A DNA stretch of 43,154 nt from assembly GCA_031422435.1 (NCBI GenBank), contig JANPLU010000082.1, positions 1 to 43,154 on the forward strand, written 5' to 3'. The translations under genes and the position numbers were made by a program. Below the pieces are notes generated by a model, which searched no databases, was not told the DNA's origin, and saw only the letters and a list, made by a program, of their open reading frames with translations. The stretch is from Acaryochloridaceae cyanobacterium VAR_48_metabat_390. GTDB lineage: Bacteria > Cyanobacteriota > Cyanobacteriia > Thermosynechococcales > Thermosynechococcaceae. Positions 5,396 through 33,107 of the stretch are shown here, in pieces (position 1 is the first letter of the stretch; each line of letters opens with the position of its first letter).

Positions 5396-5467
5396 GCGGG
5401 CATAGCTCAGTGGTAGAGCGTCACCTTGCCAAGGTGAATGTCGCGCGTTCGAATCGCGTTGCCCGCT
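5396..5467 (+). tRNA. trnG: tRNA-Gly (anticodon GCC), CCA not encoded
   Basis: Acceptor stem GCGGGCA/TGCCCGC, D arm AGCTCAGTGGTAGAGC, anticodon arm TCACC-TTGCCAA-GGTGA, T loop GTTCGAATC. Confidence 0.98.
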
Positions 5468-11834: not shown

Positions 11835-11836
11835 TC

Positions 11837-14341: not shown

Positions 14342-14350
14342 TCTCTAGCC

Positions 14351-14860
14351 ATGAAAAAGACTCAACCCTACCAGTTTCAGTTGGCAAAAACTCCCGCAGA
14401 ATGCCAAGCCTATTTTGCCCTCCGCCACTCTATTTTTGTGGAAGAACAGGGAGTATTTACGGGGAATGATGCGGACAATTTGGATGCGATTGCCTACCCC
14501 ATCATTGCCACCCAAGCATCTGAAGTCATCGGCATCGTTCGCATCTACGAATCAGCACCCAGACTTTGGTACGGCGGACGTTTAGGCGTGCATGTCGACC
14601 ACCGCCGCGCTGCCCAAGTGGGGAAGGGCTTAATTTATAAAGCTGTAACCACCGCTAATACCTGGGGCTGCGATCGCTTCTTAGCAACCGTACAGCTTCA
14701 GAACGTGCGCTTTTTCCAGCGACTGCACTGGAACTCCCTAGAAGAAATGAATCTCTGCGGCTTAACCCATCACCTCATGGAAGCAGAACTCAACCACTAT
14801 CCGCCCAATGCAGAAACTCGTCCCGCCGCCCTTCCCTTCTTGAACCAGCACGCTTCTTGA
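14351..14860 (+). CDS. MSMEG_0567/Sll0786 family GNAT acetyltransferase (Nit1C NitE)
   Basis: LR-IFVEEQ, WYGGRLGV, AV-TA-WGC-FLATVQ-QNVRFF. Confidence 0.9.
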   Translation: MKKTQPYQFQLAKTPAECQAYFALRHSIFVEEQGVFTGNDADNLDAIAYPIIATQASEVIGIVRIYESAPRLWYGGRLGVHVDHRRAAQVGKGLIYKAVTTANTWGCDRFLATVQLQNVRFFQRLHWNSLEEMNLCGLTHHLMEAELNHYPPNAETRPAALPFLNQHAS

Positions 14861-15956: not shown

Positions 15957-16655
15957 ATGCCTAAAGCCCCTATCACCCAAGGAAAGCTTAAGAAAATGAT
16001 GGCGCATCTCAATCCTGAACGTTATCTTTCTAAGCCTCAAGTCAACAGAAGCGCTGGGCTATCAACAGATCAAAAAACAACTCAAAAGTTGAGGCATGGC
16101 TTTACCAATTGGAAAAACCGATTTCTCATTCCTCTTGAAATTCTCTGCATTCCCTGGGCGCAAGAGATTCTTGACACACTATTTTTTCAAGGACGGTGGA
16201 ATCTAGTCGTTTATCCCAGATCCGTCGAGGGAATCCCTGGTATTTTTCTATCAGCCTTCTCTCACTCCGGCTGGGGACACCTCATCGGCAACAGTATCGC
16301 CTTCACAATCTTTAGTTGGTTAATTCTTGTCAAAAGCGTAAAAGACTTTTGGATTACTTTTGTGCTGGGATGGATTGGCGGAGGCTTTGCCTGTTGGCTG
16401 CTTGGGCCACAGGCTGCTCATGGACTAAGCGGGGTCGTTTATACGCTGTTTGGCTATCTACTGGTGATTGGGTGGCTTGAAAAACAATTTCTGCCGCTGC
16501 TCATTTCAGCCTTTGTGATGGTCAATTTTAGCTATGTGGTCTGGGGCATTTTCCCGACGGATTCAAGAATTGCGTGGTGGGGACATCTGTTTGGCTTTTT
16601 GCTCGGCGTATTTTCGGCCTATGGCATTTATCGTGAGCCAAAAGCGCATACTTAA
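15957..16655 (+). CDS. Rhomboid family intramembrane serine protease
   Basis: H-GWGHLIGN, GLSG (GxSG), WWGHLFG. Confidence 0.9.
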   Translation: MPKAPITQGKLKKMMAHLNPERYLSKPQVNRSAGLSTDQKTTQKLRHGFTNWKNRFLIPLEILCIPWAQEILDTLFFQGRWNLVVYPRSVEGIPGIFLSAFSHSGWGHLIGNSIAFTIFSWLILVKSVKDFWITFVLGWIGGGFACWLLGPQAAHGLSGVVYTLFGYLLVIGWLEKQFLPLLISAFVMVNFSYVVWGIFPTDSRIAWWGHLFGFLLGVFSAYGIYREPKAHT

Positions 16656-18025
16656 TCAAATTGATGCTTAATGCTCGTCAGATCTGCATAAATAGTCGTG
16701 AATGAAGGCCGAAGAGCGGGAGTTGGGTTCATACAATTTTGCTGAATAAGGCGTAGCTGATCAATCGCCACTTGCTGAGACACGGAATCTTTTGCATCAT
16801 CATGATCTAGGTCGTAATGGTCTAGTAAGTCTTGCAACAAACAGCCAAAGGCTCTGACTTCGAGTTGTTCTAAGGCTTGTCCAGTCTCGATATCGTGTCG
16901 CTTATAAAAGGAGGCTGCGCCAAAATCACCTAACAAGCTGTCTCCCGCATCGTTGACCAGAATATTATGGGCATAGAGATCGCCATGCATAATGCCTTGA
17001 TGGTGTAGATGGGCAGCGGCGGCGGAAATCCCTAGCGCGATACGCAGGATAGAGACAAAGGAAAAGGAGGTATCAGGTGTGTAGGTATCTCGAATGCAGG
17101 TTTCAAGGTTAGGGGGATTGCCCAAATTTTTATAGTCTGGTGGAATTAAGGAAAGTAATAGCCCTGCTTTTTGCTCAGGGTGATTCTCGATCTTTCCTAA
17201 CACATTGACGAGATTGGGGTGCGCCCCCGCTGCGATGTACGCCTGCATTTCATCTTCAGGGCTTCCGTCACTCGTAATGTCACCCTTGAAAATTTTGACA
17301 GCAACCGTATTAGCTTGGGTGGATGTGACCTGCCATAATGCTTTAGAAATAACGCCAGATGCACCTTCTCCAAGGGTCTCTTCGAGGGCTAAATCAGCCC
17401 AATTAATGGGGGAAAGCGGCGATGGCTTCGCACCAAGAGTACGCAGTTCTGCGGTGCCTTCACAAAATGGATTACTCGCATAGGCCAGCCATGACAACCG
17501 AGGCAGCGCAAGCAACCAAGACGGTAGCGTAGTAAGGCGATTCGCTGAAAGCCTAATCAGCTCTAAACTTTGGCAATTCTCCATTTCTTGCGGCAAAGAT
17601 TTTAAACGATTCCCTGCTAACATCAGCTTCTGCAATTTGCTGAGATTGCCGATGGTTGGCGGAAGCTGCTCAATCTGGTTATTGGTGAGGATTAACCAGC
17701 GAAGCGTGGGAGATAATGCTTGATCGCTGATATGCCGAATTTGGTTAGATTTGAACCCAATGATGCTGAGTTGAGGACATTGGGCTAGAACCTCTGGAAT
17801 TTCTTCAAACTCATTATTGACAAAGAAAACGGCCTTTAGGTTTTTTAAGCGTCCAAAGTCATCGGGCAAAGACTTTAGAGCATTATTGGATAAATCTAAA
17901 ACTTCTAACGAATCTGCCAAATCTAAAACTTCTGCTGGGAGGTGAGTTAACCCGCAGTTGAGCGCAAGTTTTTGAGTACCCACTAGCTGACCCGTTTGCA
18001 GTAGGTTGAGCGTTTCTGTCGTCAA
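16652..18025 (-). CDS. Leucine-rich repeat protein kinase family protein
   Basis: About six LxxLxLxxNxL repeats, then LGEGASG, VAVK, HGDLYAHN and GDFG. Confidence 0.92.
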   Translation of the reverse strand: MTTETLNLLQTGQLVGTQKLALNCGLTHLPAEVLDLADSLEVLDLSNNALKSLPDDFGRLKNLKAVFFVNNEFEEIPEVLAQCPQLSIIGFKSNQIRHISDQALSPTLRWLILTNNQIEQLPPTIGNLSKLQKLMLAGNRLKSLPQEMENCQSLELIRLSANRLTTLPSWLLALPRLSWLAYASNPFCEGTAELRTLGAKPSPLSPINWADLALEETLGEGASGVISKALWQVTSTQANTVAVKIFKGDITSDGSPEDEMQAYIAAGAHPNLVNVLGKIENHPEQKAGLLLSLIPPDYKNLGNPPNLETCIRDTYTPDTSFSFVSILRIALGISAAAAHLHHQGIMHGDLYAHNILVNDAGDSLLGDFGAASFYKRHDIETGQALEQLEVRAFGCLLQDLLDHYDLDHDDAKDSVSQQVAIDQLRLIQQNCMNPTPALRPSFTTIYADLTSIKHQFD

Positions 18026-18638: not shown

Positions 18639-21293
18639 TCAGTGCCGCAAATGCTTAAGCCATTTTTCAGGCAGCGGGAGTCTGAATCGATCAGAAGAAT
18701 CCTGAACCGCCGTAGATTGACGGCGCTGCTCTAGCACCTGTAAGTGGTTTCGCAAAATTTCTTTCTGCTGCATGAGTTTGCGGCGCTGACCAATCAACGT
18801 TTCGTCTAAAAGACGCTTTCGCTCTTCTTCGTCTACAAGCTGCACTTCTAAACTCAGACGCTCATACTCGCTAGCAGCATGGCGATGATATTCACCAGCA
18901 GCATTAAGCTTTTCGTGCATTTCACGCACCGTTTGGGACTGTAGACTGAGTTCTTCTTCTTGTTCTCTGACCAAACGGGCAGATTTAATCCAGTCTTTCT
19001 GGAGGGTTTCGACCGTGCCCTGAAGCTGATCTAGGGGCATCTGTTCCAAGGCATCACTTTGATGGACTGGCGAAAGGTCAAAGTCTAGAGGAAGCGATGC
19101 CTCGAGGTAATGGGGAGAGGCCGACATCGCCGCGACCGGATCCTCTGGGGCAATATGGGGAGAGGCCGCAATGAAATAATAGGGATCCGGTTCATGAATA
19201 GGCTGCACCTGATTTAAAACCAGCCCTAGAAATGGTTTGCCAATTTGAGCTAGTACCTGCCGTGCAAAATCGGCGCTGTCCGTATCAAGTTTGCCAGGTT
19301 GTGCCACCAGAAGAACGCCATCTACAAGCTGGGCAAGACGCACCGTATCGGTGCCAGTTTTAAGAGCAGCCGTATCTAAAATTACGAAGTCGTAATGGTT
19401 GGATAGATTGGCAAGCAGAGCAACCATTTGATGAGAATCTAGGTTAGATATTGCCTCACTCTCAGGCTTACCTGAAAAAATTAAATCTAAGTTAGAGAAA
19501 ATGCGCTGGACAGCAGAGTGCCAAGGCTTTTGATTCGCCAAAATATCGCTTAGCCCCACCTCAGCCGACCAAGACCAAATATATTGCTGCACAGAATCTT
19601 GAAAATTTGCTTCTACTAAGATGACTGAGTGCCCATGGTGCGCTAAGGCGATCGCCAAATTTGCGGCAACGGTCGAAGTTCCTTCTTGCGCTAAGGTACT
19701 GGTTACAGCCAGCACCTTTTGCCCTTGACCCAAAGACTGTAGGTTGCTGCGCAGCAACCGATAGGCTTCGCTCACCTTATGGTGGGGAAAGTCTACCAAA
19801 TACAGACGTGGCACTGCGCCTTCAGCCGTTCTGCGATGAAACAGTGAAAACTGCTGCTGTCCAAACAAGGGAATTACGCCCACGATGGGCAAATTGAGCC
19901 GCCGTCGTACTTCATCTACCGTTCGCAGAGATTTATTGAAAGATTCAAGGCCGTACAGCGTCAGAAATGCCAGCACAGCTCCCAGAATAAATCCTGTGGC
20001 AGCGTAGAGAGATTTACGAGGCGCACTAGGCAGCTCGGGAATCACCGCTTCCGCAATAATTCTGGCGTTGCCTTGAGCTTGATTAGACGCCACCTGCGTT
20101 TCCTGAAGTTTTTTCAGAAGGGTGCCATAGGAATTTTGAGCCACGTCTAGCTGACGCTCCAGAGCATTCTGCTGCTGCTCTAGAGTGGGGAGCAGAGCCA
20201 CCTGCTGGCGGTAGGTCTTCAAGCTCTCTGATAGGGTCGAAATTTCTTGCTGAAGACCCTTTTGAGAGGCTTCGAGGCTCACCAGTTGCGCCGTAAGATC
20301 TTGTCGGAGTTTGCCAATCAGCGTATCTGAATCAATGGCGGTACTAGAACCTGAGATTTTGGCTGCTTTCTGGGCAAAGAGCTGTTTGAGATCCTCTAAA
20401 TTGCCCTTTAACGCCGCAACGCTAGGATGGGATTCTGTGAGGCGGTTCCGGTCTAACACCAGTTGAGACTGAGTCTGCTGAATTTTAGTGAGCAAATCCT
20501 GCACTTCTGGAGATTGACTCAACGAAGAAAGGGCAACAGCCTGCTGTGGACTAATGCCTAGCTTCGCCGTTATGACACCTTCTTGTGCTGAAGTATTGGC
20601 GAGCTGAGATTGGGCATCGGCAATTTGCTTCTGAAGTCCGTCAATGCGAGCTTGGGCAGACGTAACCTGCTCTTTTAGGGTGAGGATCTGATAGGTTTGC
20701 TTAAACTGACGCAGCTTACCCTCGGCAGTCTCGACCTGCTTTTTGGCAGTGGGGAGCTGATCGGCAATAAATTGGCGGGTGGCATTCACTTCTCCTTGGT
20801 TCGAGCGAACCCCGCTCTGCAAGTAAATCTGCATCAGGGTGTTAACCGCCTGTGCTGCCTTTTTAGGGTCGCGGTCTTTAAATTCAATCTGAAGAATATC
20901 CGCGTCTTTGACGTGGTTTACGCTTAAATTTTCTAGAAATTCTGCGGTGCCAAACGGTTTTCCATCCGGCAAAGTCCAGTGCAGCTGCTGGAGGGTTTTT
21001 TCAATAATGGGCTGAGACTGAATCACCTGGGTCTCCGTCAGCAGAGGATTGCTCGTCTCAGTGACCGAGTCCATTTGATCGATGCTTTTACCCAGATCGG
21101 TCAAGGATGAAACGGGGTTTTCTCGATTGAGCTTGAGCTTGCTTTCGGCGACAAATGTCGGGCTTTGGATGTAGGCAAGAACGATAGACAGCCCTAGAAC
21201 AGAGAAAAAAACGGCTCCAGCAGGTAGCCAATGATATTTTAAAAGCTTTCGATAATCGCTGAAGCCGACGGGTAGCGCACTTGGAGTTTCCAT
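18639..21293 (-). CDS. Wzc/GumC-type polysaccharide co-polymerase with degenerate BY-kinase domain and C-terminal coiled-coil extension
   Basis: Two TM segments around a periplasmic coiled coil; SEAYRLLRSNL; VTS-x4-EGTST (Walker A K>T); YDFVILDT; GLVLN; about 180 extra C-terminal residues. Confidence 0.9.
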   Translation of the reverse strand: METPSALPVGFSDYRKLLKYHWLPAGAVFFSVLGLSIVLAYIQSPTFVAESKLKLNRENPVSSLTDLGKSIDQMDSVTETSNPLLTETQVIQSQPIIEKTLQQLHWTLPDGKPFGTAEFLENLSVNHVKDADILQIEFKDRDPKKAAQAVNTLMQIYLQSGVRSNQGEVNATRQFIADQLPTAKKQVETAEGKLRQFKQTYQILTLKEQVTSAQARIDGLQKQIADAQSQLANTSAQEGVITAKLGISPQQAVALSSLSQSPEVQDLLTKIQQTQSQLVLDRNRLTESHPSVAALKGNLEDLKQLFAQKAAKISGSSTAIDSDTLIGKLRQDLTAQLVSLEASQKGLQQEISTLSESLKTYRQQVALLPTLEQQQNALERQLDVAQNSYGTLLKKLQETQVASNQAQGNARIIAEAVIPELPSAPRKSLYAATGFILGAVLAFLTLYGLESFNKSLRTVDEVRRRLNLPIVGVIPLFGQQQFSLFHRRTAEGAVPRLYLVDFPHHKVSEAYRLLRSNLQSLGQGQKVLAVTSTLAQEGTSTVAANLAIALAHHGHSVILVEANFQDSVQQYIWSWSAEVGLSDILANQKPWHSAVQRIFSNLDLIFSGKPESEAISNLDSHQMVALLANLSNHYDFVILDTAALKTGTDTVRLAQLVDGVLLVAQPGKLDTDSADFARQVLAQIGKPFLGLVLNQVQPIHEPDPYYFIAASPHIAPEDPVAAMSASPHYLEASLPLDFDLSPVHQSDALEQMPLDQLQGTVETLQKDWIKSARLVREQEEELSLQSQTVREMHEKLNAAGEYHRHAASEYERLSLEVQLVDEEERKRLLDETLIGQRRKLMQQKEILRNHLQVLEQRRQSTAVQDSSDRFRLPLPEKWLKHLRH

Positions 21294-21557: not shown

Positions 21558-22697
21558 TTATTGCGCCTTCTTAAGAACATCGGTGTAGATATCATCATGC
21601 AGACGCAAAATGTGGGACACATCGTACTGCTGAACCTGTCGACGACCCTGAATTCCTAAGTTTTTACCGGCTTCAGGATGATCGATAATCCAGGCCATTT
21701 CTGCCGCAATTGCGGCACTATCACCCACGCTCACCAGTCTGCCTGCACCCTCTTTGAGAAGATCCTCAGTGCCGCGAATTTTGGTGCCAATGACAGGCAC
21801 GCCCATTGCCATGGCCTCCATCACGCTACGCGGGAGTCCCTCCTGCTCAGAAACGAGCAGTGTGGCGGCTGCGGCAAAGATCCAACGAGGAATATCGCTA
21901 CAAAACCCTAGAAAGTGTACCTGCTGGGCAATGCCAAGCTGAACCGCCAGGGTTTTAAGGGCTGGCGCTAGAGGGCCGTCCCCTGCCAAGACCAGATGAG
22001 CGTTGGGGCGCTGAAGCTGCGCTAAGGCCAGCAGCAAATCTTGATGGCGTTTACGGGGGATGAGTTCTGCGATCGCCAAAAACACCACATCTTCAGATAT
22101 CAGACCCAACTGCGCCCGAACCTGAAGGTGATCGGCTTCAGTGAAAGATAGGGCGCTGTAGTAGCTCAAATCTAGGCCAATACCAGGGGTGTAGCAAAGC
22201 TGGGGGGCTGGTACCAGACGATGCCTGAGGGCAGCATTTTTGTCTTCTTGGTTAATCACAATCAGGCGATCGCACCAGCGTCCAGCCCATTTTTCTAGGG
22301 TTAAAAACACGCGGTTTCGCAGCCATGAGCCATTGCGGTGAAAGTGAAACCCGTGGGCGGTATAGATCACCTTTAGCTTACCCTGGCGACGTAAAGCCCG
22401 CAGCGCAAAGCGAGTTACAAAGGCCGCAACGGGGGTATGGACATGAATTAGGTCGTAGGACGCGGCGATCGCCCGTAAGCGCTGGGGTGCCCCCACAAAA
22501 TTGAGGGGGCTGAGGGGGTTACGCGACCACTCCACATCCCAAACCTGGTGGAACGACGCAACGCAGGCAGGGCAACCTGAAATACCTTGCGCCATCGCGT
22601 CTACGGTCCAGCCCTGGGCGCGATAGTGGTCTGCCCAAGGCAGCAAGAAGCCACGAATGGTTTCAGAGACAGTAGCAACCACTAAAAGACGCGTCAT
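21558..22697 (-). CDS. Glycosyltransferase family 4 (EpsD/PglA-like)
   Basis: IHVHTPVA, IYTAHGFHF, EGLPRSVMEAMA (Ex7E). Confidence 0.93.
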   Translation of the reverse strand: MTRLLVVATVSETIRGFLLPWADHYRAQGWTVDAMAQGISGCPACVASFHQVWDVEWSRNPLSPLNFVGAPQRLRAIAASYDLIHVHTPVAAFVTRFALRALRRQGKLKVIYTAHGFHFHRNGSWLRNRVFLTLEKWAGRWCDRLIVINQEDKNAALRHRLVPAPQLCYTPGIGLDLSYYSALSFTEADHLQVRAQLGLISEDVVFLAIAELIPRKRHQDLLLALAQLQRPNAHLVLAGDGPLAPALKTLAVQLGIAQQVHFLGFCSDIPRWIFAAAATLLVSEQEGLPRSVMEAMAMGVPVIGTKIRGTEDLLKEGAGRLVSVGDSAAIAAEMAWIIDHPEAGKNLGIQGRRQVQQYDVSHILRLHDDIYTDVLKKAQ

Positions 22698-22736: not shown

Positions 22737-23951
22737 TTAATTCCCGTGAACCGACGTTGGGTGCTGCAATAGCCAAGCTTCGGTTTGCTGCCGTAAAGCC
22801 TTATAAAAAGCCGTCCGTCGGCCTTGAATGCGGTCTTCTTGAAAGTCATGCGCTCGCGTTAGATTACGGGCAGACATCTGCGATAAACGGTCAGGATCTG
22901 TAACCATTTCCTGAATTTTAGTTGCCAAGGCCAAAGCATCTGCTGGCGGCACCAAATCCTCTGAAGGCAGCAGTTCTGGCATACCGCCAACGATAGAACC
23001 CAGACAAGGCAACCCCCGCGCCATAGCCTCTAGCATGGCGCGAGGTAGCCCTTCTTGACGAGACGGCAACACAAAGAGATCGGCCTGATCCAACTGCTGC
23101 CGCACCGCTGGTCCTGTGGTCAACTGCCCCAAAAAATGACAGCGATCGCCAATCCCAAGCCGAGCCGCTTGCCCCTCTAACATCGGTCGGTACCCCCCAT
23201 CTCCCACCAACACCAGCTTTAGGTCTAGTCCTTGACCCACGCAAAGGGCGATCGCCTCAATCAGAATATCCTGAGCCTTGTAGAGCTGAGACATTGCCCC
23301 CACCGTAATGAGCGTCCAAGCGCGCTGGTTAGCCACTGCCGTCCGTGGCTGCTGCACAAACACCGGATCGGGCAGCTCAGCCATTGAGTAATGGGTTGTA
23401 AAAGCCGTGGGCGAGGGCGGATACTGCTGCTGAAGCGCAGCCTCTGTAATGTAGGCCGCAGCACTGGCTCGTTGACAAAACGATCGCAACTGCCGCGGCG
23501 CAAGCCATCGAAAGAAGGGGCGGGTCCAACTGCGCACCGCTCCTGGCGAAAAGACGTCATAAGGGTTTGCAATTACATAGATTCCGTAGGGGTAGCCCAA
23601 CGGTCGCAATCTCTTTTCAATCGCCAAAGCCGTAGGAAAGGCAGAGTAAAACAGTACCGCATCCCCCACCTTAAAAGCATCCCGAGCCGCTGCCCGAACC
23701 TGTCGTTGCCGCTGAAAATACTCCCAAGGCCCCAGATAGTAGGGCAGCGGCTCCACCGAAATAGCGCCCGTATTGACCTGAACCCAGTCTGGCGATGCCT
23801 GCGCCACCGGACGCACCCGAGCTGCAACCTTGACCTGATCAAAAACCTCCAAATACCGACTCCAGTAAGAGGGCGTAAACATCGTTTGAGTCCAAATTGC
23901 GCCATCAGGGGTGCCATCAAAACGATGATCGGTTGTGACTAATACACGCAT
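22737..23951 (-). CDS. Glycosyltransferase family 4
   Basis: YKAQDILI, DLFVLPSRQEGLPRAMLEAMARGLP. Confidence 0.92.
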   Translation of the reverse strand: MRVLVTTDHRFDGTPDGAIWTQTMFTPSYWSRYLEVFDQVKVAARVRPVAQASPDWVQVNTGAISVEPLPYYLGPWEYFQRQRQVRAAARDAFKVGDAVLFYSAFPTALAIEKRLRPLGYPYGIYVIANPYDVFSPGAVRSWTRPFFRWLAPRQLRSFCQRASAAAYITEAALQQQYPPSPTAFTTHYSMAELPDPVFVQQPRTAVANQRAWTLITVGAMSQLYKAQDILIEAIALCVGQGLDLKLVLVGDGGYRPMLEGQAARLGIGDRCHFLGQLTTGPAVRQQLDQADLFVLPSRQEGLPRAMLEAMARGLPCLGSIVGGMPELLPSEDLVPPADALALATKIQEMVTDPDRLSQMSARNLTRAHDFQEDRIQGRRTAFYKALRQQTEAWLLQHPTSVHGN

Positions 23952-23954
23952 TAC

Positions 23955-25199
23955 TTATCTCAAGGCCTCATTAATCTCATAAATCTGAACCGCTTTAGGC
24001 GGTAAACTCAAGCGCAGCTTTACCCCAGAAAGCTGCTGAGCCACTGGCGTTTGGTACAGCGGCTGGATCGATTTGATCTGTATCCAAGACCCCTGAACAA
24101 ACGCGGGTTCACTTTGCTGAGTGGAGGTGTTGACCACCACTAATAAGTGGCGTTGATTCAAAGTCCAGATGCCGCCTTTAAGGTTCGTTCTTGGAAAGCT
24201 TAGAAATCGATAGCTTCCCTCTAAAAACCACGGGGCTAAAGATTTTACCTGCTGATTTAGGGTTTTAATCTCTTGCCATAGCTTCGGATGATCGGGCAGG
24301 TACCAGGTATCGTCATAGTAGGTATAGTACAAAATCCCCTTTGCTCCACCCAAAAGCGTCTGATAAGTCATATTGCGCATTTCAGACCCATCAGGCGCAC
24401 TTCCCTGCTGTCCTGGCTTAGCGGTAGACCAAGCAAAGGCCTGTAAATTAGCAAAGAGCACGCCTTGGGGGCGACCCAACACAGCCTTAGCAGTCTCAGC
24501 CATGTCTATAGAGACACTAGACAGCTCAGCGGTGGTGTGTCGGCGAATGGGATAAGATTGCCGACCCACAATATTGGCGCATTGGGCAAACTGCGATAGC
24601 CCCTTTGAGTAACCGCTGATATAGGTTGGGTGGTTGGGGTCAGCGGCGCGGATTTGCCGATGCAGGCTCAACACCTGGGCGGGAGTCCACCTGCCATTAT
24701 CCACATCATCGGCGAGATTCCAGGCCAAAATAGCCGGCTCATTCTTAAAGCGCTGCACAAAGGCTACGGGGTCAAAATGGTGTTCACTAATGACAGAAAC
24801 ACCCAAAGCGTTAGCCTGACGTAAAAATCTTGCGTAAGACTCCCAATCCTTCGCCGAGGCGTGAACCACATTAAAGCCTGCGGCGGCTATTTCTCGAAGA
24901 TGCTGGCGTTGAGTGGCGGGGGAAGCATCCCAAGAAACGTGGTACAGCCCCAAGGGGAAAAATGAACGTCGATTTTTGAGCAGTACACCATCAGACCGAA
25001 TAGATACCTTATGGAAAGGGGGTGACGCAGCACAGTTAAGCAGCGGGAAGAGCGGTAGACCTAGCCAGAGACCGCTGCCGAACATCAGGACTGCTGCAAT
25101 CTTGCGAACAATGGGTGGGACTACGGGTTGGATCATCTTTGGTCTGGTCATAAAGGTTCCCCTTGATTCAGTCGGCGTCGCTCCAAAGCAGTCACTCAC
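23955..25199 (-). CDS. Exported/anchored glycoside hydrolase-like TIM-barrel protein
   Basis: N-terminal hydrophobic segment; FFPLGLY, AAGFNVV, PAILAWNLADD, DPNHP, GAKGILYY. True start may be about 25151. Confidence 0.6.
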   Translation of the reverse strand: MSDCFGATPTESRGTFMTRPKMIQPVVPPIVRKIAAVLMFGSGLWLGLPLFPLLNCAASPPFHKVSIRSDGVLLKNRRSFFPLGLYHVSWDASPATQRQHLREIAAAGFNVVHASAKDWESYARFLRQANALGVSVISEHHFDPVAFVQRFKNEPAILAWNLADDVDNGRWTPAQVLSLHRQIRAADPNHPTYISGYSKGLSQFAQCANIVGRQSYPIRRHTTAELSSVSIDMAETAKAVLGRPQGVLFANLQAFAWSTAKPGQQGSAPDGSEMRNMTYQTLLGGAKGILYYTYYDDTWYLPDHPKLWQEIKTLNQQVKSLAPWFLEGSYRFLSFPRTNLKGGIWTLNQRHLLVVVNTSTQQSEPAFVQGSWIQIKSIQPLYQTPVAQQLSGVKLRLSLPPKAVQIYEINEALR

Positions 25200-26478
25200 G
25201 CGCTGGACGATACAGCATAATGCCCAGAGACAGCAGGTAAGCTACGGTCAACCCGCGCCCTAAAGAGCCAAACATGCTTTCTGCCATCGAAACAGTCCAA
25301 AACATCAGGCTAATGAGCAAGGGGGCGATCGCATAGGGATTCACCCCAGCCTGTGCCTGAAAGTAGCGATAGGCGGAATAAAGGCTTAGCAGCGCGATTA
25401 TCGTCATCAGATAAAAAGCGATTAAACCACTCTGACCTAAAATATCAATGAGCGAGTTATGTCCCCCCAGATCAAAATTTTTCAGAAAATAGTCATTACT
25501 GCCGTAGCCAAACAGCCGCGTGTCTTCAAAGGTTTTTTGCCAGATATAGCTGCGACCATTAAAGGCATCGCCCGCGTCTAGTTTATCGGCATACCCTCGT
25601 TCTAAACTGGCCCACGGGTCAACAGTCTGCACCCAATAGAGCGAAGTGACGCCGAGGAAACCCATCCCAAATAGCAGTGTCCGTGCCAAGGTGCGGGGAT
25701 ATTGAAATGCCCGAATCACAGGATAAAGTGCGAATAAAAGTCCCAGTAGGCTTCCTAATAAAGCTGTCCGAGAATTAGAAAATACGATCAGCACAAAGCT
25801 CACAACAATCAATCCACTAAGACCCATGATTTTAATAGCTCTAGAGGGTTTAGCAGGGTCTAGCAAGGTTTTATTAAGCAAAATCAGCAGGCCGCAATTA
25901 ATCGTTAAAATCGTCACGCCCAATTGATTAGAGTTACTAAAAATACCCGTGTAGGGAAAGGTCGTGGGGGGAGCCTGCACCACGGACAAAATCCCATAGG
26001 GTAAATGTCCTAAAACTAAACCCCAAGCCATAACGGCCTCAAGGGAACGTCCCATTGCTCGCGGCAGCACATAAAAAAAGAGGCAAGGCACCCCCAATAA
26101 AAACCAAACGCCATCAGAAAGCGCTTTTGCATTTTCATTCACCACCCCAGACAGCATGACCACAGTCCCAAACCCAAGCCACACCCACAGCAGCAGGGAA
26201 ATACTGTGCTGAGTGGAAGGGACAGGCCTTAGAAAGGCGATCGCCATCAAAACCACCAGGGGAAGACCCACTAGCCCATACCGCACCCGAAACCAGATCG
26301 GGTCAAGGGGGTGACTGGTACTCCCTAACGCCACAATAGACGCGCCGCCCATCAGCATTGCCATCAGCACGACTAACGCCATAAAGCCGAGACCAGAAGG
26401 CGGTTGAGGCAAAGAACGTTCGGTACTAGGGTACAAATTCTGCATCAGTAAAACCCTAAACGTGGGCAGCGCGGGCAT
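25192..26478 (-). CDS. Wzy polymerase / O-antigen ligase family membrane protein
   Basis: About 10-11 TM segments; GIFSNSNQLG, SNSRTA, GRSYIW, G-G, HNSLID-L-G. Confidence 0.85.
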   Translation of the reverse strand: MPALPTFRVLLMQNLYPSTERSLPQPPSGLGFMALVVLMAMLMGGASIVALGSTSHPLDPIWFRVRYGLVGLPLVVLMAIAFLRPVPSTQHSISLLLWVWLGFGTVVMLSGVVNENAKALSDGVWFLLGVPCLFFYVLPRAMGRSLEAVMAWGLVLGHLPYGILSVVQAPPTTFPYTGIFSNSNQLGVTILTINCGLLILLNKTLLDPAKPSRAIKIMGLSGLIVVSFVLIVFSNSRTALLGSLLGLLFALYPVIRAFQYPRTLARTLLFGMGFLGVTSLYWVQTVDPWASLERGYADKLDAGDAFNGRSYIWQKTFEDTRLFGYGSNDYFLKNFDLGGHNSLIDILGQSGLIAFYLMTIIALLSLYSAYRYFQAQAGVNPYAIAPLLISLMFWTVSMAESMFGSLGRGLTVAYLLSLGIMLYRPARE

Positions 26479-27643
26479 AAAGATCGGCGAGGAGCGGTAC
26501 GGAATTTTCCATGTTAAAGGGGCTTTGTCGAACCAACGCTAGGGTTGTTTCAACGGACTGACGAGGCGTACCTTGGGCGTGGGCGATCAAGGCATTGGCC
26601 CAGTCAGCGCTGGATTGCTCCAGCGATAAGCGTTTCACCAGGGTTGGAATCAGATCGGCTTCTGGCGGGACTGCCGTTGATATAACGCAGGGCAGCCCAG
26701 CGACCTGAGCCTCAAGCAGCGCTACGCCTAAACCCTCATGCCAAGACGGAAACAAGAATAGATCAAACGCGCCTAACAGCAGGGATGGGAGATCTGACTG
26801 TACGCCTGTAAAGATCACGCGATCGCCAATGCCTAACGCCTTAGCCTGCCGCTCAGTTTCAGAGCGCAGAGAACCGTCCCCCACCAGCATGAGATAGGTA
26901 TTAGGGCGTTGATGCATCACGATTGCCGCCACCTCAACCAAGAAACGATGATTTTTCTGGGGTTCAAAGCGACCCACATGTCCTATCACCCAAGCGTCAG
27001 CAGGAATATTCCAGGCTTGACGTATCGCACCAGGAGAGACGTTGGCTTCCAAAGGCGTTAAATCTAGCCCACAGTAAATTACCTGAATTTTGGGATTAGT
27101 GACCCATGCAGAGCCAAATAAATCTACGGCTGCCCTAGTACTGGTGGCTAACCCGTGGGTTGCCGCTTGCCTAACCCAATATTTCATCAGCTGACGATAC
27201 CTTTGCCGCAGCCAGCTTTTTTGAGACTCTACTTCACCGTGATCATTGTGGCTATGGGCGATGCGATAGGGAACTTGGGCTGATTGAGCCAGTTTGAGGA
27301 CGTATCCACTAAAAAAGTGAACGTGGGAATGCACGATATCATAAGGGCCTTGCTCTCGTAAAATTCGCTTAAACTCAGCCGCGTAGATCCAGGGTCGAGA
27401 CACATAGGGACAGGGAAAGATCCGACACCCCAAGGCGCTGACCTCTGCATCATAGGCTCCAGGTTCGAGAGCATGAACCAAAATATCAACCTGAAATCGT
27501 CTCAGGTCAAGGCGTTGCAGAACCCGAACAATCCAAGTTTCTAGCCCAGCGCAATCCATTCGTCCCACGACGTGCAGCACTCGAATGGGTTCTCGCGTTT
27601 CGTCATCATGAGGCATCTTTGCAAACGCTCCCAATCCCTGCAT
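26456..27643 (-). CDS. Glycosyltransferase family 4 (EpsF/CapH-like)
   Basis: IRVLHVVGRM-GLET, RIAHSHN, GHVGRF-QKNH-FL, FPSWHEGLG-LEAQ-AGLP; likely start about 27616. Confidence 0.92.
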   Translation of the reverse strand: MQGLGAFAKMPHDDETREPIRVLHVVGRMDCAGLETWIVRVLQRLDLRRFQVDILVHALEPGAYDAEVSALGCRIFPCPYVSRPWIYAAEFKRILREQGPYDIVHSHVHFFSGYVLKLAQSAQVPYRIAHSHNDHGEVESQKSWLRQRYRQLMKYWVRQAATHGLATSTRAAVDLFGSAWVTNPKIQVIYCGLDLTPLEANVSPGAIRQAWNIPADAWVIGHVGRFEPQKNHRFLVEVAAIVMHQRPNTYLMLVGDGSLRSETERQAKALGIGDRVIFTGVQSDLPSLLLGAFDLFLFPSWHEGLGVALLEAQVAGLPCVISTAVPPEADLIPTLVKRLSLEQSSADWANALIAHAQGTPRQSVETTLALVRQSPFNMENSVPLLADLYARAAHV

Positions 27644-28502
27644 CCTGGGCAGTCCGAATCTCTGGAAAGTATTGATGCATCAGTTCCTGACAATATTGAT
27701 GGGCTGTTTCCTCTAGAAAAGCTCGATCAATTTTAGACAGCAGATTAAATTTTTGAGTAGAATTTCTTACATTTTTATGAATATTTCTAGGAAGACTATT
27801 TTGAGGAATATTTATAAAATCTTCAACTTTAGACAAGTCCTGATCGAGATTTTGAGTCTTTATGATGAGAAGCCTATCTTTAGGTATGGTAGATATAACC
27901 TTTTGATTATGTTCAGCCCAATAGGAAAAGTATCCGTGTAGGGTATATAGGTAGTGATCTGAAAGTATCCTTTCTTCCTGAGTGTGCTGAAATTTATTTG
28001 CCTTAAAAATATGTTTATTGTATCGGATCCATTTTCTGTTCTGGAATTCTCTTCTATGGCCTAAGTCACGATAAATGGGAAGATAATGATTAATGAGAGA
28101 ATCTAACCATGAATAGCAGTCTCGTATTGTCAAAATAAATTTTGCATCTTCATATTCATTCAGCAGAATATCTAATAAAGGATAGTTAAGATGCGAAGTA
28201 TCCATCTCTAGGCCTAGTCTTCGGTCTCGATGTTTTAGATAATGGATCAGCGCATTCTGATGGCTCCTCCCTTCAAAAAAATCTAATATTTTTTCAAGGA
28301 GGAGACTCGCTTCTGGCTCATGTTTTGAGCGGTACTGCTGGCTAAAAATTGCCCCTATGGTCGTCGTCCCAGTCTTAGGCGCACCGACACAGTAAGCTCT
28401 AAACTTTAAATCTTTCGCTTTGAAAGTCCAAGGTGGCAAAGCATTTTGAAGTCTGGGGATGCCCCAGACAGCTACTTTATCAATTAACTCTGGGTAGTGC
28501 AT
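27606..28502 (-). CDS. PAPS-dependent sulfotransferase
   Basis: 5'-PSB loop VGAPKTGTTT and 3'-PB motif KFILTIRD-YSWLDS. Confidence 0.85.
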   Translation of the reverse strand: MHYPELIDKVAVWGIPRLQNALPPWTFKAKDLKFRAYCVGAPKTGTTTIGAIFSQQYRSKHEPEASLLLEKILDFFEGRSHQNALIHYLKHRDRRLGLEMDTSHLNYPLLDILLNEYEDAKFILTIRDCYSWLDSLINHYLPIYRDLGHRREFQNRKWIRYNKHIFKANKFQHTQEERILSDHYLYTLHGYFSYWAEHNQKVISTIPKDRLLIIKTQNLDQDLSKVEDFINIPQNSLPRNIHKNVRNSTQKFNLLSKIDRAFLEETAHQYCQELMHQYFPEIRTAQDAGIGSVCKDAS

Positions 28503-28516
28503 ACTTTAGAGGGCAG

Positions 28517-29821
28517 TTATTTACAACGCGATTGAACATCAAAAGCGGTTTTAGTTGGGTTATGCCACAGCGCATGAGCCAACACAACAAGGCATAGTAA
28601 AGTCCGAACGACATTCGCCAAAATTATGGCAAACGCAATGCCGTTAAGACCCCACAGGGGAATGCAGTAGAAACAGGCGATCGCCAATAGGCTAGCGGTA
28701 CAGATAAACAGCGGCACCTGGCTGCGAAAGTATCGAGCAGAGGTCATTGCGGTGCCTAAAAAGGATGCAACATAGTCTAAAGCCGCTGCGACCATAAGCC
28801 AAACCAGCAGGTCAGCATACTGGGCATACTCAGGCTTGTAGACTACCGTTAAGATTTGCGCTCCGGCAATCTGAGTAATGGCGATCGCCCCCAAACCCAG
28901 TCCAAGGGCAAGGCTAATGAGCTTGAGCAATAGGCTTGCAAATGCCCTACGGTTTCCCTCTGCATAGTATTTTGCCAGCCTGGGTGAGGCGGCTTGAGCC
29001 ATCGCTCCCTGGATAATAGAACCTACTAACATCAGGTAGGCGATTGCCGCAAAAATGCCGAGATCCCGAGGGCTAAGGTAATGCTCAATAAAATAGCGGG
29101 GAATGTTGGTATTGAGCGATACCAAAAACATTACAAACCCCAAGGGCAGCGTCAGCAAGATCAGCTTGCGCTGCGTCGGCCAATGATAGCGCGGAGACAG
29201 GTGCCGACGCGCATTACGCAAGCTACCCATCACACCCAGTCGGTGCACAGTCGGCAAGTCATAGCTAAACAGCAGTAATAGCCAAGCCAGCGTCAACCCA
29301 ATCATGCCCCCTAAAACTGTTTTTGAAATCACGACGCCCATCGACAGCATGACTAAAGACAGTAGTCCTTTCAAAATCAGAGAAATGGAGATAAAGTCCA
29401 TGCGCTCATGCTGCTGCGCTAGACCATAGCAAACATCGCTCACAGACTCAATGGCTTTAGCAAGCCCCATTAAAACTACCGCAAGGGCAATTGAAGGAGG
29501 GCTAAACAGCAGACCAGCCATCCCAATTAGCACCGCTAACGCAGCACCCGTTGAGGTTAACCGTAGCCCTAGGTAGTCATTAAAAGAGTATTGGGACTGG
29601 ACATCCGTTGCCTGTACAGATCGTAGCTGAAGATTGGTGAACATGAATACAGGAGCGGTCACCGCTAAGGCATAGGTAAACTCGCCAACCATTTCAGGAG
29701 TACCCAGTTTTGCTAGCACAATCAGCATTCCCCACTGGCAGGCCGAGTAAACAACATTGCCCGCCATCGTCCAGGAAAAATTTTGTAAAAGAGAAAAAGC
29801 AATCGGCGGCGGCGGCTTCAT
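28517..29821 (-). CDS. Wzx oligosaccharide flippase
   Basis: NFSW-GN-Y-CQW, about 12 TM segments, LNTNIPRYFI-LGIF; located in the EPS cluster. Confidence 0.9.
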   Translation of the reverse strand: MKPPPPIAFSLLQNFSWTMAGNVVYSACQWGMLIVLAKLGTPEMVGEFTYALAVTAPVFMFTNLQLRSVQATDVQSQYSFNDYLGLRLTSTGAALAVLIGMAGLLFSPPSIALAVVLMGLAKAIESVSDVCYGLAQQHERMDFISISLILKGLLSLVMLSMGVVISKTVLGGMIGLTLAWLLLLFSYDLPTVHRLGVMGSLRNARRHLSPRYHWPTQRKLILLTLPLGFVMFLVSLNTNIPRYFIEHYLSPRDLGIFAAIAYLMLVGSIIQGAMAQAASPRLAKYYAEGNRRAFASLLLKLISLALGLGLGAIAITQIAGAQILTVVYKPEYAQYADLLVWLMVAAALDYVASFLGTAMTSARYFRSQVPLFICTASLLAIACFYCIPLWGLNGIAFAIILANVVRTLLCLVVLAHALWHNPTKTAFDVQSRCK

Positions 29822-29824
29822 AAC

Positions 29825-32650
29825 CTAGTTTAAGCACTGGCTCTGCAGCAGCACTTCAGCCTGTTTTCCCTCAATCGGCCGCAAGAAGAAATATCCCTGA
29901 CCGTATTTGAACTTCAGGGTTTTTACTTGGGTAAGCTGCTCAGAAGACTCAATTCCTGTTGCAATCATGTCGAGTCCACAGGTTTCAGACAGGTGCACAG
30001 CCTTCTCAAAAAAGTCGAGGTTATCTAGCTCTTGAGACAGCTCATGAATCCGGGAGCGATCAATCTTAAACCCATCAAATACATGCACCCAGTCCATGAG
30101 AGGCGATAAGTGCGTCAATGGCGAAAGCCCAAAGTTATCGAGGAACAGCCGCACCCCAAGCCCCTTCATTTTTAAGAGCGTTGCGATCGCCCCCTCCGGA
30201 TGCTGAGCAACAAACTGTTCAGGAATCTCAAAACATAGCCGAGCCACATTGACTTGAGTGCTTTGAAAAATAGCGCTTAGGTTTGAAATAAAATCAGGAT
30301 GCAGAAGCTGAGACGTAGACCAGTTAACGCTAATAGTGAAGCTAGGGTGGAGATTAAGCGCTTCAAGCGTACACATCTGCACACAAACCTCACGCATTCC
30401 CCATAGACCAATAGCGTGAATGCGCTGCGTCTGATCTGCCGTTTTGATAAATTGGCTAGACGGCATCAGCCCGTGCCGTGGATGCTGCCAATGCAGAAGC
30501 GCCTCAAACCCCGTTACTACATACTCTTTCTGAAGCAGCAAGATGGGCTGATAGAGCACCTTAAAATCTCGAAGTACCTCAGCAGTAGAAAGCTCTTGCG
30601 CCAGTTTATGACCATCGATCAGACTTAAAGGTGGACTCAGCGGCATGGGGCGGCTTACATCTACCCGTCTTCTATGGCGCTTTGAGGGTTTAGTCTGGGC
30701 AAGATCAAGTGCCTGCTGCGTCGGAAAAATACTTGAAACAGAATCTGACTGGAACCCTGGGATCAAGCGCTTAACGCAAAAGCGAATCATAGCTTCGTTA
30801 TGATCTAACGCTGCCTTAAAGAGCGATCGCAGGCCCACCTCTAGATGGGGCGGTACTTGAGCATAGGCATCTTGAACCACAACCAAATTCTCGTTTGCCG
30901 TAGGCTCATAAAACTCATCGGCAAGAAATAGCTCTTCGTGGAGTTTTTCGCCAGGTCGTAGGCCAGTATAAACAATCTCAATCTCTGAATCCACCTCATA
31001 CCCAGACAGCCGAATTAGATCTTGAGCCAAGTCCACAATTTTAATGGGGTGGCCCATATTCAGCATAAAAATTTCGCCCCCCTGGCTCATCACCGTGGCC
31101 TGCAAAACCAGATGAACCGCCTCAGGAATCGTCATAAAATACCGTGTCACCTCAGGATGCGTAATCGTCACTGGTCCACCTCGCTCAATCTGGCCTTTCA
31201 AGGTGGGGACAACGCTTCCTCGGCTACCCAAAACATTCCCAAATCGCACCACGCAAAACTGCTTTTGCTTCTGCTGTGCCGCCTTGAGAACAATCAGCTC
31301 ACCCATCCGTTTGCTAGCCCCCATCAGGCTAGTCGGGTTTACCGCTTTGTCGGTTGAGATCATCACTAACTGGCTGATATTGTGCGCCAGCGCCACATCC
31401 ACCAAATTTTGGGTTCCCAAAACATTATTCATAATTGCTTCAGGTGGGTTTAGCTCCATCATCGGCACATGCTTATGCGCCGCCGCATGAAAAACCACTT
31501 CAGGCCTAAATCTCCGAAAGGCGTAGTCTAGACGAACATGATCTTTGAGATCTGCAATTAAAACGCTCAGGCGAATCGACAGGTGAGGCTGAGTCGTTTT
31601 CAGCACCTGCAGCACCTGGTTCAGCTCCTGCTGAATCAAGAACACAGAATTTTCGCCATGCCCCATCAGAATTAACTCTGCCGGATGGCACTGAAGCACC
31701 TGACGACAGATCTCACTACCAATAGACCCTCCCGCCCCCGTCACCAAAACCCGCCTAGACCGCAAATTCGGGGCAACGCCCTCTAAATCTGAGCAAATGG
31801 TGTCTCGGCGCAAAAGGTCTTCAATCTTGACGTCCCTCACGCTTCGGGGGTTAACGGTGCCGTTAATAATTTCATGAATGCTGGGTAGCGTGCTAGTCGC
31901 AATACCGTAACTTTGACACATCTGCACAATCTCACGAATGGCTGCTCCACCCGCCGAGGGAATCGCAATAATGACTCGTTTTATCTCAAGGCTCACCGCC
32001 AAATCAGGAAGCTGCGCACGAGAACCCCGTACCGAAATACCCCGAATCTTAAGGTCGAGCTTTTTAGGATCATCATCTACAAACGCGATTGGCTCTAGGG
32101 TAGAGCGTCCACCCTGTCGAATCGCCTCAACCAGAGCCACCCCAGCACTTCCTGCACCGTAGATAATCACCCGTTCACGAGCCTGTATTGAACGTCGCTG
32201 ATGCCGCGAATTTTCAAACGCTTTAACGCTAAAGCGCACTGCCCCAACGCCAATAAAGGTCAATAGCCCATCCAATAGAGGGAAAGACCGAGGCAGCAGA
32301 AAAATATCTGAAACGCTGAAAAGAGACATGACTGAGAGAATCATGCTCTCTAGCAAACTAATGGAAGCGCAGGCCGCAGCAATTTCGAGCAGATTTTCAG
32401 TACTCGCAAATCGCCAGCAGCCCCTATAGCACCCTAAGACAGCCAGACATACAATTTTTAAAAGTATGAATACAGACAGAGACAGAATAAGGCCATAAGC
32501 AAAACTTCTGATTAAAAGCCAGTCATCTAAGCGCAGCCACAGAGTCAAGAATGGCGTACAGGTAAATATACAAATATCGGCAATGAGAAAATTAAAATTT
32601 TTTAACTTTAAAGCGCTTTGACAAAGCTTAAGAAACATTGCTTTTAGCAT
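29825..32650 (-). CDS. CapD/PglF/WbpM-type UDP-N-acetylglucosamine 4,6-dehydratase fused to a degenerate EAL domain
   Basis: 4 TM segments, YGAGSAG, TGAGGSIGSE, HAAAHKHVP, STDKAVNP-MGASK, RFGNVLGSRGSV, GLRPGEKLHEEL; then YQPI...FEALLHW-HP...KIDR...GQGYFF. Confidence 0.93.
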   Translation of the reverse strand: MLKAMFLKLCQSALKLKNFNFLIADICIFTCTPFLTLWLRLDDWLLIRSFAYGLILSLSVFILLKIVCLAVLGCYRGCWRFASTENLLEIAAACASISLLESMILSVMSLFSVSDIFLLPRSFPLLDGLLTFIGVGAVRFSVKAFENSRHQRRSIQARERVIIYGAGSAGVALVEAIRQGGRSTLEPIAFVDDDPKKLDLKIRGISVRGSRAQLPDLAVSLEIKRVIIAIPSAGGAAIREIVQMCQSYGIATSTLPSIHEIINGTVNPRSVRDVKIEDLLRRDTICSDLEGVAPNLRSRRVLVTGAGGSIGSEICRQVLQCHPAELILMGHGENSVFLIQQELNQVLQVLKTTQPHLSIRLSVLIADLKDHVRLDYAFRRFRPEVVFHAAAHKHVPMMELNPPEAIMNNVLGTQNLVDVALAHNISQLVMISTDKAVNPTSLMGASKRMGELIVLKAAQQKQKQFCVVRFGNVLGSRGSVVPTLKGQIERGGPVTITHPEVTRYFMTIPEAVHLVLQATVMSQGGEIFMLNMGHPIKIVDLAQDLIRLSGYEVDSEIEIVYTGLRPGEKLHEELFLADEFYEPTANENLVVVQDAYAQVPPHLEVGLRSLFKAALDHNEAMIRFCVKRLIPGFQSDSVSSIFPTQQALDLAQTKPSKRHRRRVDVSRPMPLSPPLSLIDGHKLAQELSTAEVLRDFKVLYQPILLLQKEYVVTGFEALLHWQHPRHGLMPSSQFIKTADQTQRIHAIGLWGMREVCVQMCTLEALNLHPSFTISVNWSTSQLLHPDFISNLSAIFQSTQVNVARLCFEIPEQFVAQHPEGAIATLLKMKGLGVRLFLDNFGLSPLTHLSPLMDWVHVFDGFKIDRSRIHELSQELDNLDFFEKAVHLSETCGLDMIATGIESSEQLTQVKTLKFKYGQGYFFLRPIEGKQAEVLLQSQCLN

Positions 32651-33107
32651 AGAAACAAGACTCCTGTCTCATCATATTTCATTTTTTCTTGATGACAAGG
32701 TTTTGCTAGACAGCTTATTGAACCATAGCTGCAACTTCGGGGCTTGACAAAGTTCTATCTGTAAATTAAGAATAGGTTAACGCTGAAGACAAGTTCCTAA
32801 GTAATGTTCGCTGGCGACTTGAGAAAACGTAGAAGTTGTTTCTGTATAAGCGCGTGCTTACTTTTACTTAAGCTCAGTAGAAGCAAAGATTCATAGCCTA
32901 GGAAAATTCAACCATTGCTCGGGAAATTTCTGAGCCAGATTTTAATCTAGGGGCAAACAACCTTCAGATTCTAGATTTTGCTAAACAGCTACTTCTGCCG
33001 TCAAATTCGCAAATCTTAGCGCTAGGCCTTAACAATTTAAGGCTGTAAATCTACTAAAAGCCTAGGTCTCTCTAATTTATATGGGTAAGCTCATTGGTAT
33101 TTTTTAG

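Follow-up and report, generated by a model that had tools for sequence, protein, structure and literature searches.

The window analysed here, the 43,154-nucleotide contig JANPLU010000082.1 of Acaryochloridaceae cyanobacterium VAR_48_metabat_390 (assembly GCA_031422435.1), carries a gene in which a PglF/CapD-type nucleotide-sugar dehydratase is joined in frame to a degenerate EAL domain, a domain type of cyclic di-GMP (c-di-GMP) phosphodiesterases. This fusion is old, widespread and under selection. Judged by its residues, the EAL domain of the family is predicted to be a catalytically dead phosphodiesterase domain, and the pattern of residues and selection is as would be expected for a selected domain that binds a ligand and does not hydrolyse it. 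We propose, with confidence evenly poised, that the protein is a membrane-anchored dehydratase bearing a non-hydrolysing c-di-GMP sensor that would tune the precursor supply of a Wzy-type polysaccharide pathway, a proposal that runs from ligand binding through to control. The gene and its parts are given below, with the evidence for each in brackets.

29825-32650 (-): fusion gene, 941 amino acids (aa), PglF/CapD-type dehydratase plus degenerate EAL, P0001 (single open reading frame (ORF), Pfam, sequencing-run contigs)
32195-32596 (-): N-terminal membrane domain, aa 19-152, four predicted helices (AlphaFold2 helices 19-40, 44-71, 84-111 and 123-152; hydropathy peaks at aa 21-120)
31886-32182 (-): CoA-binding-like Rossmann domain, about aa 157-255 (PF13727; 3nkl match at 157-296)
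30746-31837 (-): short-chain dehydrogenase/reductase (SDR) 4,6-dehydratase domain, aa 272-635 (Pfam, PDB sequence match, fold match)
30608-30745 (-): variable low-confidence linker, aa 636-681 (predicted local distance difference test (pLDDT) below 50 at 653-676; ratio of nonsynonymous to synonymous substitution rates (dN/dS) 0.15-0.48)
29840-30607 (-): degenerate EAL domain, aa 682-937 (family alignment)

Integrity of the fusion gene and its dehydratase

The ORF at 29825-32650 (-) contains no internal stops, and Pfam assigns CoA_binding_3 to aa 72-247 of its product, Polysacc_synt_2 to 301-592 (E 4e-115) and EAL to 686-925 (E 5e-44). A contig from sequencing run X1, a possible source of this DNA, covers the entire gene with no differences, a contig from run X2, made from a second sample of the same study, crosses the linker with none, and no insertions or deletions within the gene are listed across the four sequencing runs compared. 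The fusion is genuine and not an assembly artefact; a first-pass annotation of this DNA had allowed for a stop codon between the two domains, and the sequencing-run contigs cross without one. A search of sequencing runs listed no RNA data that hold the gene.

The dehydratase motifs STDKA (aa 432-436) and MGASK (443-447) and the linker run SKRHRRRV (656-663) were located in the translation. Every EAL motif and coordinate of the first-pass annotation was likewise recovered there, namely EALLH (716-720, nucleotides 30491-30505), DNFGLS (838-843, covering nucleotide 30134) and TGIE (898-901, covering nucleotide 29957), with SVN, FEIPE, KID and GQGY all present in the EAL part. The dehydratase had been taken for a complete CapD/PglF/WbpM-type enzyme, which its residues bear out: T433, D434, K435 and M443 correspond to T395, D396, K397 and M405 named in structures of PglF variants, and K447 also aligns. 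The SDR domain has a Gly-rich NAD motif, the Thr-Asp-Lys and a Met replacing the catalytic Tyr, and these active-site residues (T433, D434, K435, M443, K447) are invariant or nearly so across 62 fused, 27 unfused and 15 outgroup sequences. By sequence, the best PDB match is Campylobacter jejuni PglF (5bju, E 5e-80), and Foldseek matches the fold to PglF with a template modeling (TM) score of 0.91-0.92 (target-normalised) and a root mean square deviation of 2.5-2.7. The curated NCBIfam cut-offs for PseB (200 versus 408 bits) and FnlA (CapE; 142 versus 730 bits) are both missed, and the fusion protein is the only strong PF02719 match in its genome (E 3e-116; runner-up 3e-15). From sequence and model, the SDR domain likely turns UDP-GlcNAc into a 4-keto-6-deoxy sugar.

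The AlphaFold2 model, built on a 118-row alignment, has a mean pLDDT of 84.6 and a predicted TM score (pTM) of 0.58 and comes without an error map, so the packing of its domains is unreadable. Among the 118 aligned proteins the linker varies from 15 to 77 aa in length and from -9 to +8 in net charge. The in-frame passage through a basic linker, as first described, therefore stands in part: there is one open frame, but the basic run is specific to the window copy, a basic run of six being found in 2 of the 118. A functional role for the basic linker, or for a PilZ-like RxxxR motif within it, was considered and rejected: RxxxR occurs in 10 of 118 proteins and the linker is not conserved.

Residues and conservation of the EAL domain

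PA3825 coordinates metal 1 through Glu39, Asn98, Asp130 and Asp160; for metal 2 the ligands are Asp161 and either Asp183 or Glu217 (passages of PMC5301497). The window EAL retains E716, N776, E808, D838, Q701, K862, D864, E901 and QGY, and has in common with its family the loss of the acids at 839 and 898 (here D839N and E898T) and a degenerate loop 6. Asp is absent from position 839 in all 121 aligned sequences (Asn in 99, His in 12, Gln in 7), as is Glu from position 898 (Thr in 69, Ala in 26, Met in 14). Invariant in 121 of 121 are Q701, E716, E901, Q918 and G919; D838 is conserved in 120, N776 and E808 in 119 each, K862 in 112 and R720 in 99. A set of 67 fused domains (48 of the 121 proteins, 14 loci and 5 representatives) lacks both acids throughout, keeps the four metal-1 ligands in 62 cases and has the Arg of ExLxR in 61. 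Of 71 other cyanobacterial EALs, 67 are canonical and one has the same double loss, this comparison set of 60 top-scoring loci of 10 genomes and the window's genome being biased to canonical, top Pfam scorers. Two residues before D838, a family Gln836 (window nucleotides ~30143-30145) occurs in 85% of fused domains and 1% of others, and may take up the room left by the missing Glu.

The nucleotide pocket is largely kept. Out of 20 canonical pocket residues, 34 fused domains retain 13-18 (mode 18), the window copy 15 and PdeL 20, compared with 9 in Escherichia coli BluF and 7 each in RflP and CsrD. Mean entropy over 18 pocket positions is 0.63 versus 1.83 for the domain, with none of 10000 random sets as low, a difference to which structural constraint may contribute. 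Residues Q701, E716, E901, Q918, E808, D838, E811 and N776 lie within the 20 most conserved of 256 EAL positions, and five family-specific conserved positions were found outside the pocket. The domain is full length across the family at 37% mean identity, and its fold matches the EAL of the active enzyme MucR with a TM score of 0.90. Its dN/dS is 0.033, 0.036, 0.041, 0.064, 0.12 and 0.17 in the six of eight pairs that gave an estimate (catalytic domain, 0.04-0.09), values that contradict the neutral evolution of the EAL part raised as a possibility in the first-pass annotation.

ExLxR is the binding motif in FimX, LapD and Erwinia CsrD (portions of PMC12564702 and PMC9276943). Of the other FimX contacts, assigned by motif order and spacing without a computed alignment, those at Q701, L718, L719, Q918, G919 and P925 are conserved and the equivalent of E653 is lost. 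On this pattern c-di-GMP binding is probable in the members that keep the Arg. It is somewhat doubtful in the window copy, whose sub-clade, marked by His720, may bind weakly or bind another nucleotide. Sub-clade members have Phe or Leu at 836 and lack the family Gln836, and their EAL is still conserved, at 70% identity to the query versus 76% for the catalytic domain. The Arg-type fusion is present in the cultured strains Gloeocapsa sp. PCC 7428 (P0077) and Stanieria cyanosphaera PCC 7437 (P0103).

Distribution and history of the fusion

PF02719 and PF00563 are both present in all of the best 120 of 8000 homologues scored (43-92% identity), so that the architecture proposed for checking, Polysacc_synt_2 plus EAL, is a general one. 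The organism names shown for these 120 are all cyanobacterial; the closest is Altericista (P0005, 78%), and others include Moorena, Microcoleus, Gloeocapsa, Stanieria and Pleurocapsa. Many bear the automatic JGI label 'NDP-sugar epimerase/EAL domain-containing protein'. When 1.84 billion representatives are searched with a profile, both domains are covered by 6 of the top 150 matches. A match of E 1e-60 or better was found in 99 of 401 genomes of the class, with 41 in a closer group (E <1e-160), and these 41 close orthologues comprise 14 fused (5 coded families) and 27 unfused forms, 25 of the latter examined as loci and the remaining 2 judged by frame length. The fused orthologues, like the best 120 homologues, speak against a fusion unique to this assembly, which had been named as a further possibility.

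Fused and unfused forms interleave in the dehydratase tree, with five changes over 104 rows, or seven over 32 rows, at least four of them forced by the starred branches, and monophyly of the fused forms on that tree is rejected by the approximately unbiased (AU) test (p-AU 8e-6). The outgroup was drawn from a scan of genome contigs with dehydratase patterns only, in which at least 600 stretches were found and 80 kept, one of them fused. The fused EALs, by contrast, fall on one side of a branch, with support of 96, 91 and, in the careful tree of 16 fused rows, a weak 73/59; a long-branch degenerate EAL (L237) lies inside the fused clade in one tree and outside the fused side in the careful tree. 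They branch among canonical cyanobacterial EALs. The best 16 unfused EAL matches examined keep the DD and the EGVE Glu, and 12 of them have a GGDEF motif in the available stretch. No free-standing EAL of the fused clade was found among the matches listed for the 401 genomes, where six candidates per genome were scored, 566 matches were unlisted and a single-sequence search is too weak. The simplest reading is that an EAL derived from an enzyme was fused once, long ago, and has been lost repeatedly since; exchange of the domain between lineages is a possible alternative history.

Other CapD fusions among 23 proteins scanned carry receiver domains, sugar transferases or GT4/MraY domains. Two CapD-type dehydratases (P0256, P0260) bear a C-terminal response-regulator receiver domain in the place of the EAL, which suggests that regulatory domains recur at the C-terminus of CapD. 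At L136:13254-17621 (G022) and in P0112, a flavin amine-oxidoreductase domain, CapD and a degenerate EAL are combined in a three-part fusion of about 1450 aa.

Degenerate EAL domains on other polysaccharide enzymes

A second degenerate EAL in the same genome is fused N-terminally to a family 26 glycosyltransferase (GT26; WecG/TagA) at G000:C115:4380-5834 (-) (L225), with counterparts in G349 and G022 (L226:5671-7140 and L227:5217-6650). An HpsE-type GT2-EAL fusion occurs at L238:4629-6470 (G092), with 478 bits to the HpsE model (cut-off 300), and a GT4-EAL-receiver fusion at L239:5093-7612 (G153). These forms came to light among 20 selected low-scoring EAL loci, which is no census. In all three the EGVE Glu is absent and ExLxR is retained, and DD has become DN in the GT26 and GT4 forms. 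The AU test rejects a common origin with the CapD module for the EAL of the GT26 form (p-AU 0.002) but not for that of the GT4 form (p-AU 0.52), and the EAL of the HpsE form sits on a distant branch. The three resemble the CapD fusion in having an EAL without the EGVE Glu on a polysaccharide enzyme, differ from it in the enzyme and are known from genes alone.

Repeated recruitment of dead EALs to polysaccharide enzymes would make a regulatory role more probable. We tentatively put forward the wider idea, itself a little short of an even chance, that cyanobacteria have repeatedly and independently joined dead one-metal EALs to early enzymes of lipid-linked polysaccharide synthesis (CapD/PglF, GT26, HpsE, GT4). 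They would make up a class of c-di-GMP effectors not yet described, gating Wzy-type extracellular polysaccharide (EPS) where its precursor is made and its synthesis primed; the CapD fusion would control the point at which UDP-GlcNAc is drawn away from the cell wall, and the His720 sub-clade may read another ligand.

Proposed mechanism and alternative explanations

As the first step, the SDR domain, recognised by sequence and fold, would act on UDP-GlcNAc as described above. To judge by the neighbouring genes, a DegT aminotransferase, a FemAB/GNAT or PglD-like acyltransferase and a small phosphoglycosyl transferase would then convert the product into a lipid-linked 4-amino-4,6-dideoxy sugar as primer of the repeat unit, and GT4 enzymes, Wzx, Wzy and Wzc would assemble and export the polymer. 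The EAL would hold its ligand as a receptor, a role suggested because metal site 1 and the nucleotide pocket are kept and the second-metal and general-base residues lost. Ligand-bound EAL on its flexible tether would finally alter how active the dehydratase is, how it oligomerises or which partners it binds. Analogy with other EPS systems makes it likelier that high c-di-GMP would activate than inhibit. Staphylococcus aureus CapD is inhibited by the cell-wall metabolites UDP-MurNAc-pentapeptide and lipid II (passages of PMC6441080), and the CapD step is thus a known control point, though not via c-di-GMP.

A number of observations weigh against c-di-GMP control of the dehydratase. The window copy has EALLH and lacks ExLxR; His720 is found in 22 of 121 sequences (the window copy and 21 relatives), and all 22 combine R720H with E739D/N/S/A and P731S. 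Binding by the window copy is argued against because EALLH removes the Arg of the motif, and since the change is peculiar to this sub-clade, with the Arg kept in 99 of 121, the window copy is a weaker receptor candidate than its family. EALLH had been counted among the signs of degeneracy in the first-pass annotation; the change is there, but its bearing on binding in this copy is adverse. The lost Glu898 corresponds by spacing to E653 of Xanthomonas citri FimX, a ligand contact (excerpts of PMC7288161). Two triplets of kin supplied the dN/dS estimates, and the comparison of the window with G009 gives a dN of 0.14 with dS saturated. Over the long range, EAL entropy (1.83) is about that of the membrane domain (1.78), the catalytic domain standing at 0.98. 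Sequence comparison found no fused-specific surface patch on the dehydratase beyond conservative swaps; with the linker variable and no dehydratase position marking the fused forms, an interface between EAL and dehydratase is without sequence support. The EAL is absent from about two-thirds of the close orthologues, and many of the unfused ones head the same type of operon as the fused. BluF, RflP and CsrD also lack the EGVE Glu, so its loss alone is not a receptor signature; BluF and RflP are not known to bind c-di-GMP. A complex prediction of dehydratase aa 150-640 with EAL aa 676-941 (score 0.03, mark 0.32) is used neither for nor against.

Several of these points would also suit an EAL that serves as a protein-interaction or assembly module without c-di-GMP, like BluF and RflP, or as a reader of pGpG, another nucleotide or a metal ion. 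Such an EAL would link the dehydratase with Wzc, with the priming transferase or with a regulator. The three substitutions shared by all 22 members of the His720 sub-clade, in a domain that is still conserved, fit such a module, as do the family-wide degeneracy of loop 6 and the loss of the Glu equivalent to FimX E653. Against it, the family mode of 18 of 20 pocket residues contrasts with 7-9 in BluF, RflP and CsrD, polar pocket residues rank within the top 20 of 256 for conservation, and family-specific conserved positions outside the pocket number only five. We consider this explanation unlikely for the family as a whole, and most likely for the His720 sub-clade.

The EAL could instead bind c-di-GMP and have its output elsewhere, with the enzyme as membrane anchor holding it at the polysaccharide machine, where it would buffer c-di-GMP or let a cyclase or another effector dock. 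A long, variable tether (15-77 aa) modelled at low confidence, an enzyme without a fused-specific patch and similar EAL modules on unrelated enzymes of such pathways would all be in keeping with an anchor. On the other side, the matches listed in the 401 genomes contain no free-standing EAL of the clade, and the best 16 unfused ones keep DD and the EGVE Glu; the EAL is seemingly kept only while fused, which fits action in cis. An anchor is, in our view, distinctly improbable.

Slow one-metal phosphodiesterase activity that lowers local c-di-GMP would draw on the retained E716, N776, E808, D838, K862 and D864 and the close fold match to MucR, but it is very improbable, given that none of the 121 sequences has the second Asp of DDFG or the first Glu of EGVE, that loop 6 is degenerate and that mutation of the first Glu of ExxE abolished the activity of TBD1265 (sections of PMC12943098). 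The repeated loss (at least four changes forced on the tree) and extra erosion in some lineages (L132-L135) might point to an EAL left over from an old fusion, now functionless and decaying, but this is barely credible and is largely refuted by dN/dS of 0.03-0.17 with bootstrap intervals far below 1, in a full-length domain of 37% mean identity that has lost the same two residues and kept others.

Were c-di-GMP control of the dehydratase true, a receptor would sit on the first committed nucleotide-sugar enzyme of a Wzy pathway and add a new point of control where the routes to cell wall and polysaccharide part. The idea is directly testable in the cultured Arg-type strains, with unfused orthologues as natural controls and a soluble part that is expected to be assayable as for PglF.

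Relation to known systems

In cyanobacteria c-di-GMP drives aggregation and motility. The fusion would work, by analogy, like a FimX/LapD-type receptor attached to a PglF-type enzyme. With FimX and LapD, and also FilP and Erwinia CsrD, it shares an EAL fold that has lost the catalytic acids, retained YQP and QG and, in 99 of 121 family members, ExLxR; unlike FimX and LapD it lacks a GGDEF domain, is joined to a biosynthetic enzyme and keeps all four metal-1 ligands, and the window copy has His for Arg. Membership of the FimX or LapD family was ruled out: there is no GGDEF-EAL tandem, Pfam finding no GGDEF domain, and the LapD model cut-off is missed (37 versus 1020 bits), the EAL scoring E 9e-42 with the model for active enzymes versus 1e-9 with that for LapD.

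The dehydratase part shares with PglF/CapD/WbpM enzymes the membrane, CoA-binding-like and SDR domains and the active site of Thr-Asp-Lys and Met. As for C. jejuni PglF, PglC-, PglD- and PglE-type neighbours are found in related cyanobacterial loci; unlike PglF, the fusion bears an extra C-terminal EAL, sits in a Wzy/Wzc polysaccharide operon and not in a protein-glycosylation locus, and has a predicted activity. Post-translational control of EPS by c-di-GMP is described for BcsA and Alg44 (both PilZ), PelD and BcsE (both degenerate GGDEF), PgaCD and BgsA (parts of PMC8461298). The proposed system is like these in coupling c-di-GMP post-translationally to polysaccharide synthesis, but they act on synthase-type polymerase complexes, whereas the fusion would use an EAL to act where a Wzy pathway makes its nucleotide sugar. 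Few c-di-GMP receptors are reported in cyanobacteria; the PilZ cellulose synthase XcsA is named, and the receptor question posed, in portions of PMC10124867.

The CapD-EAL fusion has been annotated automatically, and no description of it was found in the titles and abstracts of the literature searched, subscription journals lying mostly outside that search and supplementary domain-architecture tables being a place where it could be listed. The word 'dehydratase' is absent from the main text of PMC8461298 and from PMC12564702, and 'CapD' from the main text of PMC4284465, PMC3747582 and PMC10124867.

The polysaccharide operon and neighbouring genes

The fusion gene heads a Wzy-type operon, whose downstream genes are all on the same strand.

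32671-32698 (-): sigma-70-like site, 10/12 matches, just upstream of the fusion-gene start (weak, at chance rate)
28517-29821 (-): Wzx-type flippase, starting 3 nucleotides past the fusion-gene stop (PF01943, sequence)
27606-28502 (-): sulfotransferase (PF17784, PF00685)
26456-27643 (-): GT4 glycosyltransferase (domain scan)
25192-26478 (-): Wzy/O-antigen-ligase-like membrane protein, likely the polymerase (PF04932; weak EpaQ match)
23955-25199 (-): 414-aa ORF without a Pfam or NCBIfam match
22737-23951 (-): GT4 glycosyltransferase (domain scan)
21558-22697 (-): GT4 glycosyltransferase (domain scan)
18639-21293 (-): Wzc-like co-polymerase/tyrosine kinase with an HmpF-like C-terminal tail (model matches)

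Promoter scanning of the window ran at chance rate, with 17 sigma-70-like sites seen versus 16.1 expected, and terminator scanning did likewise. The Rfam scan of the window gave no riboswitch, its sole match being a tRNA at 5396-5467.

Genes for wzx, wzc or GT4 enzymes adjoin all 15 fused loci examined. The window operon lacks a priming transferase and an aminotransferase; the G009 operon extends with a small phosphoglycosyl transferase, a GT47-like gene, a FemAB/GNAT gene and a DegT aminotransferase, homologues of which (66, 51, 42 and 77% identical, respectively) lie together in the window's genome at G000:C34:28685-33170. On that contig (L224:4664-9179) the transferase is inverted relative to the other three genes. 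Further fused loci hold transferase, DegT or PglD-like genes (56 of 107 unassigned ORFs scanned). From these neighbours, the dehydratase would feed the 4-amino-4,6-dideoxy first sugar of a Wzy/Wzc-type capsule or EPS, perhaps sulfated, and its placing at the first step of the pathway, as originally annotated, is a reasonable inference.

The 414-aa ORF has homologues in several related operons (34-55% identity), and its product may be a secreted carbohydrate-active protein. The tail of the Wzc-like protein (aa 746-867) matches the model of the pilus taxis protein HmpF at E 6.5e-31 without reaching its cut-off, and may connect the export of polysaccharide with pilus motility. Below the operon, a leucine-rich-repeat and protein-kinase gene (window 16652-18025, minus strand) is 83% identical to a gene near the fused locus of G003. 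At 11352-15831 (+), nitrilase, DUF1348/SnoaL, radical SAM, GNAT and AIR-synthase-like genes form a compact cluster that presumably resembles the MSMEG_0565-0572 cluster. Elsewhere the window holds an IS66 transposase fragment at 6480-6908 (+) and, on the plus strand, the tRNA gene already mentioned.

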